Positions 55,296 to 57,968 of a stretch of 64,000 nucleotides of DNA are shown here, in pieces. The stretch lies in NCBI RefSeq assembly GCF_055900595.2, contig NZ_CM148325.1; one strand, given 5' to 3'. The position numbers and the translations under genes were made by a program. Numbering within the stretch: position 1 is the first letter of the stretch; every line of letters begins with the position of its first letter. Below the pieces are notes generated by a model. It made no database searches. It was given only the letters and a program-made list of their open reading frames with translations, and had not been told where the DNA came from.

Positions 55296-56042
55296 ATGTT
55301 TGTTATAACAATGGCTGGCTTAAGTAGTCGTTTTTTTAATGCCGGTTATACTGTGCCAAAATATCAACTGCCACTACATGGGCAAACTGTTTTTTACCAC
55401 TCCATAAATTCGTTTCACAACTATTTTCACAGTGATGATTTTATTTTTATAATAAGAAACATATTTGAAACATCAGTATTTATAAAATCAGAATGTAAAA
55501 AACTAGGGATAAAGAATTTCGAGATAATTACTTTGGACAAAGAAACTAGAGGGCAGGCAGAGTCAGCATATATTGGATTAAAAGATATTAATTATACTGA
55601 TGGTATATATATATTCAATATAGATACTATTAGACATGATTACACCAAACCTGACTTTATTAATAATTGTGATGGATATCTTGAAGTTTTTGAGGGGGAG
55701 GGTAAACATTGGTCATTTATACTCCCAGATCAGAATGGAAATGTTTCTCGCACTACTGAAAAAATAAGAATATCTAATTTATGCAGCGATGGATTATATT
55801 ATTTCAAGGATAAGTATATATTTGAGAGTGCTTTTAATAACGCTGTGAAAAAAAACAATGAAATAGCAGGGGAATATTATGTGGCTCCTCTTTATAATAC
55901 ATTAATACAAGATGGTAAAGTTATAAAATACGAACTTGTAAATAATTCATTTATTGATTTCTGTGGTACTCCTGAAGAATATAATCTTTTATTATCCCAA
56001 CCATATAAATTTGTGGAAAAATATGAAGAGAATAATTTTTGA
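55296..56042 (+). CDS. Putative sugar-/alcohol-phosphate nucleotidyltransferase (GT-A-like NTP-transferase fold)
   Basis: 248 aa; N-terminal ITMAGLSSRF...PKYQLPLHGQTV resembles the (I/L)AAGxG(T/S)R(L/F)...PK.L glycine-rich loop of nucleotidyltransferases. Confidence 0.55.
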   Translation: MFVITMAGLSSRFFNAGYTVPKYQLPLHGQTVFYHSINSFHNYFHSDDFIFIIRNIFETSVFIKSECKKLGIKNFEIITLDKETRGQAESAYIGLKDINYTDGIYIFNIDTIRHDYTKPDFINNCDGYLEVFEGEGKHWSFILPDQNGNVSRTTEKIRISNLCSDGLYYFKDKYIFESAFNNAVKKNNEIAGEYYVAPLYNTLIQDGKVIKYELVNNSFIDFCGTPEEYNLLLSQPYKFVEKYEENNF

Positions 56043-56394
56043 TATCGATAATACTCTTTCATTTACTACCAATGGAGATTATAAGAATGCAGAGCCAAAT
56101 ATACCTTTGATAGAAAAACTGAGAGAATATAAAGGAAAAGGTTACGAGATTATACTTTCCACGAGTAGAAATATGCGAACCTATAATAGTAATATAGGAA
56201 AGATTACAGCAGTAACTTTACCTATAATTGTAGAGTGGCTAGAAAAAAATAATGTACCTTATGATGAAATTTATGTCGGTAAACCATGGTGCGGTCATGA
56301 GGGATTCTATGTGGATGATAAGGCCATTCGTCCCAATGAATTTGTTAACTTAAGTTATAATGAGATAAAAAAATTGACAGGTATTAAATCATGA
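56023..56394 (+). CDS. Small HAD-superfamily phosphatase-like protein
   Basis: 124 aa from ATG 56023 (MKRIIFDIDNTL...): HAD motif I DxDxT (FDIDNTL), motif II-like STSR; overlaps the upstream gene by 20 nt and the downstream start by 4 nt. Confidence 0.55.
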   Translation: MKRIIFDIDNTLSFTTNGDYKNAEPNIPLIEKLREYKGKGYEIILSTSRNMRTYNSNIGKITAVTLPIIVEWLEKNNVPYDEIYVGKPWCGHEGFYVDDKAIRPNEFVNLSYNEIKKLTGIKS

Positions 56395-57968
56395 TTTTGA
56401 TTACTTCGGCTGCCTATATTTCTAATGAATTGAGAATTGAGTTTGGTGTTATCCCTCCATGTTTATTACCCATTGGTAATCGTACTTTATTAGAGTATCA
56501 AGCAGAATCAATTCGTAAAATGAGCAACGAGAAAATTTTTTTGACTTTGCCAGAGGATTACTGCCTATCAAAATTTGAAGAACGATTACTAGACTCGCTA
56601 AATATACGAGCCATCTACTTATCACCAAATTTAAGCTTAGGTGAGTCTATTTATCAAGCACTTGATAGTATAGGTGATTATACTTTTTCATCCGATGGTC
56701 TCAAGCTGTTACATGGTGATACTCTGATTAATGATTTAACTAATCAGAATGATATTATTGCTGTGGCACCATCTTCAGATGATTATTTTTGGGAAAAAGA
56801 AGAACATACATATGAGAACCTTGCCTGGTGCGGTTATTTTACATTTTCTATGCCTAATATATTTAAGGGCTTTTTAGAAGCATCAAGATTCAATTTTGTA
56901 CAAGCAGTTCGTTCTTATGATGAAGTAATCCACCTCAGTCGTATGAAACCAAAAAGCTGGGATGATCTAGGGCATTTAAATACTTATTTTATTTCTCGAT
57001 CTAACATTACTACTCAGAGAGCATTTAATGAAATGCGTATTCAACATGGGATGGTATGGAAGTCAAGCAAAAACAACAAAAAAATTCTTGCTGAAACGAA
57101 TTGGTATAAAAAAATCCCAGCCTTACTAAAATCTTTTACACCTCAGTTGATCGAAGACGGTATTTACAACAAAACTGGAAATTATTTCTACACATTAGAA
57201 TATTTACCATATATCCCATTAAATGAAATATTTGTTCACGGCAAAAATCCAGATTTTTTTTGGAGGAAAATTTTCAATATTATCAAAGAATACTTATTCA
57301 AAGCTAATAGTGCACTGACAAATATTAGTCAAAATAATATTGGTGAAAAAATAGCCATTGATTCTGAAGCGTTATATAGGACTAAAACATTTGTTAGACT
57401 CACAGAGTATGCCGTTGAGAATAATATATCAATCGATAAGCCTGTTTTTTACGATAACAGAAGATTACCTTCATTACACGATATAGCTAGTGATTGTATA
57501 GACCGAACTACTCAGCTACCAATTGTACCTTCAATTCTTCATGGGGATCTTTGCTTTAGTAATATTCTTTTCAACTCTCGTCTTAACAGCATTAAAGTGT
57601 TGGATCCTCGTGGTATAAGCCATAATGGTGAAGAGACCATTCTTGGTGACCAAAAATATGATCTGGCAAAACTCTGCCATTCAGTAATAGGGCTTTATGA
57701 TTATGTAATTTCCGGAAGATATCATTTAGATGGGGATCTATTTAATAATGCTGTTATATGGTTTGATATAGATACACGAATTAAGAGTATTCAGCAAGAA
57801 TTTTATGAATATAAATTTTTGTCTAATATTAGTGTTGGAGAAATAATGCCTCTTACTACTTTGCTATTTTTGTCTATGCTGCCCCTTCATAGCGATCGTC
57901 CGGATCGTCAAAAAGCTATGCTGTTTAATGCACTGCGGATATATTCTACATATGTTTACGATGTTTAA
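56391..57968 (+). CDS. Putative bifunctional nucleotidyltransferase / small-molecule kinase (APH/choline-kinase-like)
   Basis: 525 aa; C-terminal half has a Brenner-type phosphotransferase motif ILHGDLCFSNILFN followed by KVLDPRG (DFG-like position); N-terminal ~120 aa resemble an NTP-transferase fold. Assignment by motif only. Confidence 0.5.
   Translation: MILITSAAYISNELRIEFGVIPPCLLPIGNRTLLEYQAESIRKMSNEKIFLTLPEDYCLSKFEERLLDSLNIRAIYLSPNLSLGESIYQALDSIGDYTFSSDGLKLLHGDTLINDLTNQNDIIAVAPSSDDYFWEKEEHTYENLAWCGYFTFSMPNIFKGFLEASRFNFVQAVRSYDEVIHLSRMKPKSWDDLGHLNTYFISRSNITTQRAFNEMRIQHGMVWKSSKNNKKILAETNWYKKIPALLKSFTPQLIEDGIYNKTGNYFYTLEYLPYIPLNEIFVHGKNPDFFWRKIFNIIKEYLFKANSALTNISQNNIGEKIAIDSEALYRTKTFVRLTEYAVENNISIDKPVFYDNRRLPSLHDIASDCIDRTTQLPIVPSILHGDLCFSNILFNSRLNSIKVLDPRGISHNGEETILGDQKYDLAKLCHSVIGLYDYVISGRYHLDGDLFNNAVIWFDIDTRIKSIQQEFYEYKFLSNISVGEIMPLTTLLFLSMLPLHSDRPDRQKAMLFNALRIYSTYVYDV

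Follow-up and report, generated by a model that had tools for sequence, protein, structure and literature searches.

The unusual sugar common to the capsules of Escherichia coli K4 and K52 and to the LPS core of Vibrio cholerae is beta-fructofuranose (beta-Fruf). Its acceptor is the GlcA of chondroitin in K4 as opposed to galactose-1-phosphate (Gal-1-P) in K52. Hofmann, Jann and Jann reportedly described the K52 structure in 1985 as Gal-1-P with a beta-Fruf branch. The polymer is made of galactose, phosphate and fructose and is not known to contain alditol or choline.

In the K4 literature, KfoE is named a fructosyltransferase and deletion of kfoE is reported to yield unfructosylated chondroitin (PMC8858990). 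The fructose link goes back to this one knockout phenotype, as relayed by reviews. In Campylobacter jejuni HS:1, fructose is added via a single 849-aa protein, HS1.08, a putative sugar transferase that is genetically required for the Fruf branches, and no gene trio of the kind considered here is reported from that locus (PMC7901785). The literature searched contained no description of an activated (NDP-) fructose donor for capsule or LPS and no paper on the pathway of the trio.

The K52 capsule locus and its gene trio

The window analysed here, a stretch of 64,000 nucleotides from contig NZ_CM148325.1 (RefSeq assembly GCF_055900595.2), carries the group 2 capsule locus of E. coli K52 (KL52, UMN026-type). 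Its DNA is 100% identical to that of ST69 O15:H18 genomes, and an 829-aa protein encoded just upstream of the trio is 100% identical to AFDB entry B7NCT8 of the O17:K52:H18 strain UMN026, whose genome (CU928163) is the KL52 reference. K52 is reported to have the highest estimated invasive potential among E. coli capsule types and to occur typically in the multidrug-resistant CC69 lineage (PMC13171598). An ops element (GGCGGTAG, 46023-46030, + strand) and kpsM (46063-46839, +) mark the start of a long co-directional transcription unit, the last gene of which encodes the 525-aa member of the trio; on the + strand, no terminator-like site was found between the genes from 46000 to 58000. The promoter/terminator scan stayed at chance level. 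Between kpsM and the ABC transporter ATPase gene kpsT (51869-52549, +) lie two genes (together 46939-51697, +) that likely serve backbone synthesis; one encodes a 'galactosyltransferase-related' protein of 330 aa, the other a protein of 1248 aa in which residues 464-821 form a TagF-like domain. The gene for the 829-aa protein follows (52769-55258, +; 833 aa if read from the TTG at 52757). Beyond the trio, a decayed IS3 transposase gene (58186-59295), kpsS (59541-60773) and kpsC (60808-62835) are all on the - strand. Family scans of the locus found no TagD or TarI/J-like enzyme, and similarity to IspD was very weak and sub-threshold (19 bits, where the cut-off is 253).

The trio consists of a sugar-phosphate nucleotidyltransferase (NT) gene (55296-56042, +; 248 aa, ATG start), a gene for an EcbF/BcbF-family capless HAD phosphatase (56023-56394, +; 123 aa, ATG at 56023) and a KfoE/EcbG-type gene (56391-57968, +; 525 aa, an NT-like domain plus a kinase). 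All three are co-directional, with overlaps of 20 nt (56023-56042) and of 4 nt, the ATGA at 56391-56394. This arrangement, which the initial annotation had read from the open reading frames, agrees with RefSeq, where the same three CDSs are annotated in 39 complete E. coli genomes with identical DNA (99-100% identity). These are real genes and not chance ORFs, because stop codons are frequent at the composition of the region (~31% G+C) and each protein has hundreds to thousands of homologues.

Protein families and predicted folds

The 248-aa protein, initially called nucleotidyltransferase-like, matches PDB 4EVW with an E-value of 8e-71, while its match to the Pfam family NTP_transf_3 is weak. 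Among 78 homologues G8, S10, R12, K22, T84, G86, Q87 and A88 are invariant, as are D110, E155, K156, G166 and Y168, and the RmlA/GlmU-like GxGxR...K signature, the metal-binding Asp and the EK sugar-phosphate motif are all present. These matches, which uphold the first description, classify it by sequence as a canonical sugar-1-phosphate nucleotidyltransferase or sugar-nucleotide pyrophosphorylase of the K4 'orf/group_229' and V. cholerae 4EVW type, and it is predicted to catalyse the NDP-sugar-forming step.

The middle protein had been recognized as a HAD-type phosphatase from its FDIDNTL motif, an assignment that stands, although its length is 123 aa rather than the 124 aa first given, which included the stop codon. 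It scores 202.6 bits against TIGR01689, above the curated cut-off of 162, and is homologous to V. cholerae PDB 1XPJ (E 2.6e-47). FDIDNTL is HAD motif I, in which D7, D9 and T11 are invariant among 69 homologues; R49, K87 and D98/D99 complete the set of four invariant motifs, and the superfamily motifs I-IV (DxDxT, S/T, K, DD) are present. Sequence family membership thus points to a TIGR01689 capsule phosphatase, a capless HAD of the EcbF/BcbF family.

The 525-aa protein belongs to a family of more than 1,771 members and is 48% identical to Bibersteinia EcbG. Pfam and NCBIfam scans gave nothing significant for it, for KfoD or for the L003 456-aa protein, a PDB sequence search with it returned no match, and its profile retrieved from the PDB just spurious TPR-repeat matches and weak eIF2B-gamma and NT matches. 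Structure comparison of the predicted fold assigns residues ~1-200 to an NT fold and residues ~205-525 to an APH/choline-kinase fold, in line with the initial proposal of an N-terminal NT-like region followed by a kinase; family assignment by profile, by solved structures and by predicted fold confirms the domain assignments throughout the trio. The HGDLCFSN motif noticed at the outset, found like FDIDNTL in the protein to which it had been ascribed, occupies residues 384-391, and H384, G385, D386 and N391 are invariant among 34 homologues. The C-domain also has the bilobal fold, the catalytic HxDxxxxN loop, the Mg-binding Asp and the Lys/Glu pair of the N-lobe that mark APH/choline kinases, and the invariance of the kinase residues implies a real phosphorylation step. 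In the N-domain the NTP-binding Arg and Lys of canonical enzymes are missing, as is the sugar-1-phosphate NT signature; the domain keeps an invariant set of its own (S6, Y9, E13, E17, G109, D110) and has its closest structural matches among pyrophosphorylases, not glycosyltransferases. On these models, the protein is a degenerate NT-like domain fused to an APH/choline-kinase-fold kinase, the NT-like domain being probably a non-catalytic partner or scaffold and possibly a transferase.

A portable module and its candidate transferases

In 59 of 75 species-level loci, from several phyla and in three gene orders, the NT, HAD and 525-aa genes sit side by side and point the same way; they form a conserved, portable and widespread module. 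The window contains the KfoE/EcbG-EcbF-NT capsule module: a full-length KfoE/EcbG homologue, an EcbF/BcbF phosphatase and an adjacent 4EVW-type NT on the same strand. The K4 locus is likewise a group 2 kps locus, and a single operon in it encodes all four protein families, the order there being kfoD-phosphatase-kfoE-'glycosyltransferase' (HAD-KfoE-NT) in place of the NT-HAD-525 order of K52. Identities between the two are 60% for the HAD protein, 46% for the NT and 35-38% for the 525-aa protein, the latter to both halves of the IS1-split K4 KfoE (E 3e-33 and 1e-64). K4 KfoD is a free-standing protein of 477 aa, whereas the homologous domain in K52 is fused behind an acyltransferase in the 829-aa protein. 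In the V. cholerae wav cluster (waaA-HAD(1XPJ)-527aa-NT(4EVW)-WavE) the trio is adjacent and co-directional as in K52, with identities of 58% (HAD), 49% (NT) and 35% (525 aa). The V. cholerae trio serves the LPS core, whereas that of K52 serves the capsule, and the transferase candidate of V. cholerae is WavE (PF07507) and not a KfoD-like protein.

The 829-aa protein is likely the fourth member of the K52 module. It carries a hexapeptide acyltransferase domain towards its N terminus (about 53201-53458, +) and a KfoD-like GT-A-fold domain at its C terminus (about 54344-55255, +), which is predicted to transfer the activated sugar. A KfoD-like or WavE-like gene was found in 45 of the 66 loci with full flanks, in most cases 0-140 nt away, and no such neighbour was detectable in the other 21. 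The K52 GT-A-like domain groups by Foldseek with numerous capsule proteins of Campylobacter that are 600-1200 aa long; members of the Campylobacter capsule-modifying 'sugar transferase' family are structural relatives of the KfoD-like domain. A KfoD-like profile search aimed at HS1.08 returned only a C. lari protein, so that a link between HS1.08 and this family is conjectural. Iterative HMM searches did not unite the KfoD-like and WavE families (hhalign probability 43%), and on sequence the two appear at best remotely related.

A proposed route to the fructose branch

Our preferred reading, to which we give a probability of roughly 0.55, is that the module is a four-part side-branch cassette making nucleotide-activated D-fructofuranose from fructose-6-phosphate for the K52 fructose branch. 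The route would start from fructose-6-phosphate, a glycolytic intermediate, and the kinase domain (APH fold) of the 525-aa protein would phosphorylate the anomeric O-2. The capless HAD would take off the 6-phosphate, either before or after the kinase acts or once the sugar sits on the polymer, and the 248-aa enzyme would condense an NTP with the sugar phosphate. The GT-A-fold domain of the 829-aa protein would then move fructose onto O-2 of the galactose-1-phosphate backbone, and the acyltransferase domain fused to it may add O-acyl groups. The direct basis of this proposal is the gene structure, the folds, the conserved catalytic residues, the synteny across phyla, the K4 and V. cholerae orthology and the KL52 identity; what we infer is the substrate, the sequence in which the steps occur, which nucleotide is used and which domain is the transferase. 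The initial view that the exact substrate could not be deduced was too pessimistic, since the gene neighbourhoods compared across loci, the kfoE knockout reported for K4 and the published polymer structures together point to fructose. As a more tentative composite, which we would put somewhat short of even odds, the module would make a never-described nucleotide-activated D-fructofuranose, KfoE would be misnamed, being a kinase with a pseudo-NT domain, and the transferases would be the KfoD- or WavE-like GT-A proteins. Such a donor would answer how cytoplasmically assembled glycans gain ketofuranose branches, and it would follow that the O antigens of E. coli O78 and O20/O137, like numerous other glycans of trio-bearing loci, bear acid-labile fructose branches that structural work has overlooked.

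The order of functions in this proposal resembles that of the ADP-heptose pathway (HldE kinase, GmhB HAD-IIIA phosphatase, HldE adenylyltransferase), in which a kinase, a phosphatase and a nucleotidyltransferase are likewise combined, the kinase acts anomerically on a sugar phosphate and the start is a keto-sugar phosphate of central metabolism. In contrast, the K52 kinase has the APH fold rather than the ribokinase fold, the NT is of RmlA/4EVW type rather than cytidylyltransferase-like, and there is no isomerase; the resemblance is one of analogy only, with homology limited to the HAD superfamily.

The fructose branch is likely a major epitope of K52, and the four-part module is a small, directly testable enzyme set with fructose-6-phosphate, ATP and an NTP as inputs; it also includes two orphan crystal structures that await a function (4EVW and 1XPJ). 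If the proposal is correct, thousands of genes that now carry the labels 'glycosyltransferase family 2', 'hypothetical' or 'fructosyltransferase' would be re-annotated, and the engineering of strains that produce unfructosylated chondroitin would be aided. It would also predict that acid-labile sugar branches have been overlooked on the O antigens of O78 and O20/O137.

These O-antigen clusters bear on the possibility that the module activates and attaches some other labile residue (a further keto- or pentofuranose, for example, or a phospho-sugar), perhaps varying from locus to locus, with the association with fructose being partial or coincidental. The same trio is found in the E. coli O78 and O20/O137 clusters, yet fructose does not figure in their published structures or among the E. 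coli O-antigen sugars of a comprehensive review (PMC7685785). Family members from these contexts are just ~35% identical to each other, and the O20 antigen contains Ribf. Ribf is, on the other hand, derived from PRPP by a separate enzyme family (wbaM). Fruf is acid-labile and therefore plausibly overlooked in work on O polysaccharides, so that either it was lost during their preparation or the family has other substrates. As fructose is the one unusual sugar that K4, K52 and the V. cholerae core have in common, and as loss of kfoE is reported to remove fructose specifically, we consider a different substrate unlikely.

We judge it quite unlikely that fructose is transferred by the 525-aa KfoE-type protein itself, acting through its NT-like (GT-A-related) N-domain, with the 248-aa enzyme and the phosphatase making the donor and the KfoD- and WavE-like proteins doing other work. 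The pyrophosphorylase-like structure of that domain argues against such a role, as do the weak match of the profile to the non-catalytic NT-like domain of eIF2B-gamma and the phosphorylation step implied by the invariant kinase residues. In its favour are the name given to KfoE, the retention of a private invariant set by a domain that has lost its NTP-binding Arg/Lys, and the 21 loci in which a KfoD-like or WavE partner escaped detection; the knockout phenotype cannot tell donor synthesis from transfer.

The initial annotation had envisaged a private activated-precursor pathway resembling LicA/LicC, in which a kinase and a cytidylyltransferase make a CDP-alcohol or head group (glycerol, ribitol, choline or ethanolamine) that feeds the TagF-like polymerase or adds a phospho-substituent. 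The general logic of that pathway survives. AmgK/MurU, NahK/GlmU and LicA/LicC likewise pair an APH-fold kinase with an NTP-transferase, the same pair of folds as in the trio. Unlike these pairs, to which the trio proteins do not belong at the sequence level, the K52 module includes a phosphatase in addition, along with a further NT-like domain that is degenerate, and it sits in a polysaccharide locus with a dedicated transferase. The link to the TagF-like polymerase or to a phospho-substituent is rejected because the trio is equally conserved in K4, the V. cholerae core (wav), O78 and O20 clusters, which have no TagF-like gene, and because it usually travels with a GT-A-fold transferase of its own. 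Pfam and NCBIfam gave no match to the choline kinase, LicC, TagD or TarI families, leaving a likeness at the level of the fold; an alcohol kinase plus cytidylyltransferase route needs no phosphatase; and K52 is not known to contain any alditol or choline. All of this makes a CDP-alcohol route highly improbable. CDP-glycerol or CDP-ribitol supply by the trio was likewise discarded, no cytidylyltransferase in the locus matching either TagD (PF01467) or a TarI/IspD equivalog and the trio being independent of TagF-like genes elsewhere.

An aminoglycoside or other antibiotic phosphotransferase, or some other function unrelated to the capsule, merits virtually no credence for the kinase and was rejected, as there was no significant match to APH Pfam or NCBIfam resistance models, the PADLOC defence scan was negative, and in polysaccharide loci of different phyla the 525-aa gene is a fixed component, always accompanied by those for HAD and NT.

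Locus identity and operon structure

The window contains a group 2 kps capsule locus adjoining the gsp/yghD type II secretion genes, and its sequence identifies the locus as KL52. The DNA is identical to that of ST69 O15:H18 genomes, strain UMN026 (CU928163) serves as the KL52 reference, and the 829/833-aa protein encoded upstream of the three genes studied here is 100% identical to UniProt B7NCT8 from E. coli O17:K52:H18 UMN026. K52 is the E. coli capsule type reported as most invasive (PMC13171598).

On the plus strand, kpsM (46063-46839) is followed by genes for a 330-aa 'galactosyltransferase-related' protein and a 1248-aa protein whose residues 464-821 form a TagF-like (Glyphos_transf) domain (47951-51697), then by kpsT and the gene for an 829-aa acyltransferase-plus-unknown protein (52769-55258), which directly precedes the trio. 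ORF calling places the trio, also on the plus strand, at 55296-56042 (nucleotidyltransferase, 248 aa), 56023-56394 (HAD phosphatase, 123 aa, ATG at 56023) and 56391-57968 (525 aa); a decayed IS3, kpsS and kpsC follow on the minus strand. The overlaps of 20 nt and 4 nt (ATGA) noted in the initial annotation were confirmed, while its HAD length of 124 aa had counted the stop codon. RefSeq annotates the three CDSs identically in 39 complete E. coli genomes (DNA identity 99-100%). The trio region has ~31% G+C against roughly 50% for the chromosome; its long ORFs are not chance events, and the low-G+C island looks horizontally acquired.

A terminator scan found no terminator-like site between the plus-strand genes, and kpsM to the trio can therefore be read as one long operon. 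An ops element, GGCGGTAG (46023-46030, plus strand), precedes the kpsM start codon by 33 nt, a position compatible with RfaH-dependent read-through across the whole kpsM-to-525 operon; a further copy at 60221 is no more than expected by chance. In classical group 2 loci kpsM and kpsT are adjacent, whereas here they are split by the two serotype-specific genes (46063-52549), and the kpsM and 330-aa gene pair occurs in many other K loci at about 84% identity. The 1248-aa TagF-like protein is present, yet the locus lacks a CDP-glycerol/CDP-ribitol synthase. Because of this, and because the K52 backbone is reportedly a hexose-1-phosphate polymer, the enzyme may be a hexose-1-phosphate transferase and not an alditol-phosphate polymerase.

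Fold and family of the three proteins

For the 248-aa protein the PDB match is 4EVW (E 8e-71), described as a 'nucleoside-diphosphate-sugar pyrophosphorylase' of V. cholerae, and every canonical sugar-1-phosphate nucleotidyltransferase motif is kept across 78 homologues (G8, S10, R12, K22; T84-G86-Q87-A88; D110; E155-K156; G166, Y168). The 123-aa protein belongs to TIGR01689, the EcbF/BcbF 'capsule biosynthesis phosphatase' family (202.6 bits, cut-off 162), its HAD motifs are all invariant in the homologue alignment, and a V. cholerae homologue has a solved structure listed as function-unknown (1XPJ).

The 525-aa protein gave no significant match in Pfam or NCBIfam. Its AlphaFold model, built from 34 homologues, is confident (pLDDT 89, pTM 0.86), and structure comparison revealed a nucleotidyltransferase fold in the N-terminal half (ST0452 14.8, UGPase 14.6, RmlA 14.4, 4EVW 13.8, LicC 13.6, MurU 13.1). 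Kinase residues K224, E235, H384-G-D386, N391 and D405 are invariant in the 34 homologues. These assignments bear out the domain reading of the initial annotation. The N-terminal domain and the 248-aa enzyme are distant paralogues that share 27% identity across 122 aa. The domain has its own invariant set (S6, Y9, E13, E17); since the NTP-binding Gly, Arg and Lys are replaced (A8, N12/E13, P22-P23), it is probably not a conventional pyrophosphorylase.

A conserved module and its predicted sugar

More than 1,771 proteins belong to the 525-aa family, and a scan that took a single genome for each species yielded 75 loci from Gamma- and Betaproteobacteria, Campylobacteraceae, Desulfovibrio, Bacteroidales, Flavobacterium and Corynebacterium. 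The three genes lie side by side on one strand in 59 of these, in three different orders, which is strong evidence that their products function jointly. The neighbouring gene usually belongs to one of two families, between which hhalign supports at best a remote relationship (43% probability). The KfoD-like family includes K4 KfoD, a 364-aa protein of P. multocida, a 453-aa protein of Pseudomonas and, in K52, the last 300 residues of the 829-aa protein; the WavE-like family (PF07507) includes the 456-aa product of a gene in a third E. coli K locus (L003). Of the 66 loci whose flanks are complete, 45 carry a member of either family, in most cases 0-140 nt away. The trio is the K52 member of a module known by name (KfoE/EcbG, EcbF, 4EVW-type nucleotidyltransferase).

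Three independent contexts point to fructose as the sugar of this module. The K4 capsule is a fructosylated chondroitin, and its locus has the order kfoD-phosphatase-kfoE-'glycosyltransferase', with identities to K52 of 35-38% (KfoE/525-aa), 60% (HAD) and 46% (nucleotidyltransferase). The K52 polymer is reportedly ->3)-alpha-Gal-(1-P-> bearing beta-Fruf at O-2 as well as O-acetyl and O-propionyl groups (Hofmann, Jann and Jann 1985; reviews by Jann). The V. cholerae LPS core contains beta-fructofuranose, and its wav cluster reads waaA-HAD-527aa-NT(4EVW)-WavE (L083, 8050-12429), followed by a hexapeptide acyltransferase gene. The HAD and the pyrophosphorylase of this V. cholerae copy both have structural-genomics structures, 1XPJ and 4EVW respectively, listed as of unknown function. 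In K4, kfoE deletion is reported to yield unfructosylated chondroitin (PMC8858990).

The K52 cassette is thus best explained as a predicted fructose side-branch pathway. The initial annotation had proposed an activated-precursor pathway that would supply the TagF-like polymerase or add a phospho-substituent, an interpretation that is partly supported. Its polymerase link is argued against by K4 and the V. cholerae core, which have no TagF-like enzyme and no alditol or choline phosphate. No paper on an activated fructose donor for capsule or LPS-type glycans turned up in the literature searched, and the K52 trio offers a direct way to test what the fructofuranose donor is.

The trio also occurs inside the E. 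coli O78 (L085, 3573-9503, with a WavE gene) and O20/O137 (L084, 8857-11569) O-antigen clusters, whose 525-like proteins are 35-36% identical to that of K52. Ketofuranosides, like Kdo linkages, are acid-labile, and a fructose branch may have been overlooked there, lost during acid release of the O-polysaccharide; these clusters could equally represent a module family with other substrates. Fructose is absent from the E. coli O-antigen sugars listed in a comprehensive review (PMC7685785), and the C. jejuni HS:1 fructose branch needs only HS1.08, of 849 aa (PMC7901785).

Proposed route to the fructose branch

For the fructose pathway favoured here, the three trio activities would convert fructose-6-phosphate to NDP-fructofuranose: the APH-fold kinase of the 525-aa protein would phosphorylate the anomeric O-2, the HAD phosphatase would take off the 6-phosphate, and the canonical 248-aa nucleotidyltransferase would form the NDP-sugar. 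The logic parallels ADP-heptose synthesis, with its kinase, GmhB and adenylyltransferase. Equally possibly, the phosphatase could act first, giving fructose from Fru-6-P, or it might act last, on transferred Fru-6-P, as with PRPP-derived ribofuranose, where the phosphate is removed after transfer. The degenerate nucleotidyltransferase-like domain may pair with the active 248-aa enzyme, as GMPPA does with GMPPB, may channel a labile ketose phosphate, or may itself be a transferase.

The 829-aa protein supplies, in its GT-A-like domain, the best candidate for the fructose transferase, and the hexapeptide acyltransferase fused to this domain would agree with a branch that is O-acylated. This protein (52769-55258) comprises a hexapeptide O-acyltransferase, a long helical middle and the C-terminal GT-A-fold KfoD-like domain, and its structural relatives are the many capsule proteins of Campylobacter, 600-1200 aa long, that are labelled 'sugar transferase'.

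In the third E. coli K locus, also of group 2 (L003, 5901-13422, and L008), a trio with a 57% identical 525-aa protein is preceded by genes for the WavE-like protein of 456 aa and for one of 1157 aa that carries the annotation 'HAD-IA family hydrolase'; this locus is a candidate for a further fructose-bearing capsule type. Insertion sequences cluster around the module: in K52 the stretch from the 525-aa gene to kpsS contains a frameshifted IS3-family transposase remnant (58186-59295), and in a K4-like locus (L004) an IS1 splits kfoE and an IS2-like element of the IS3 family separates kfoC from kfoD.
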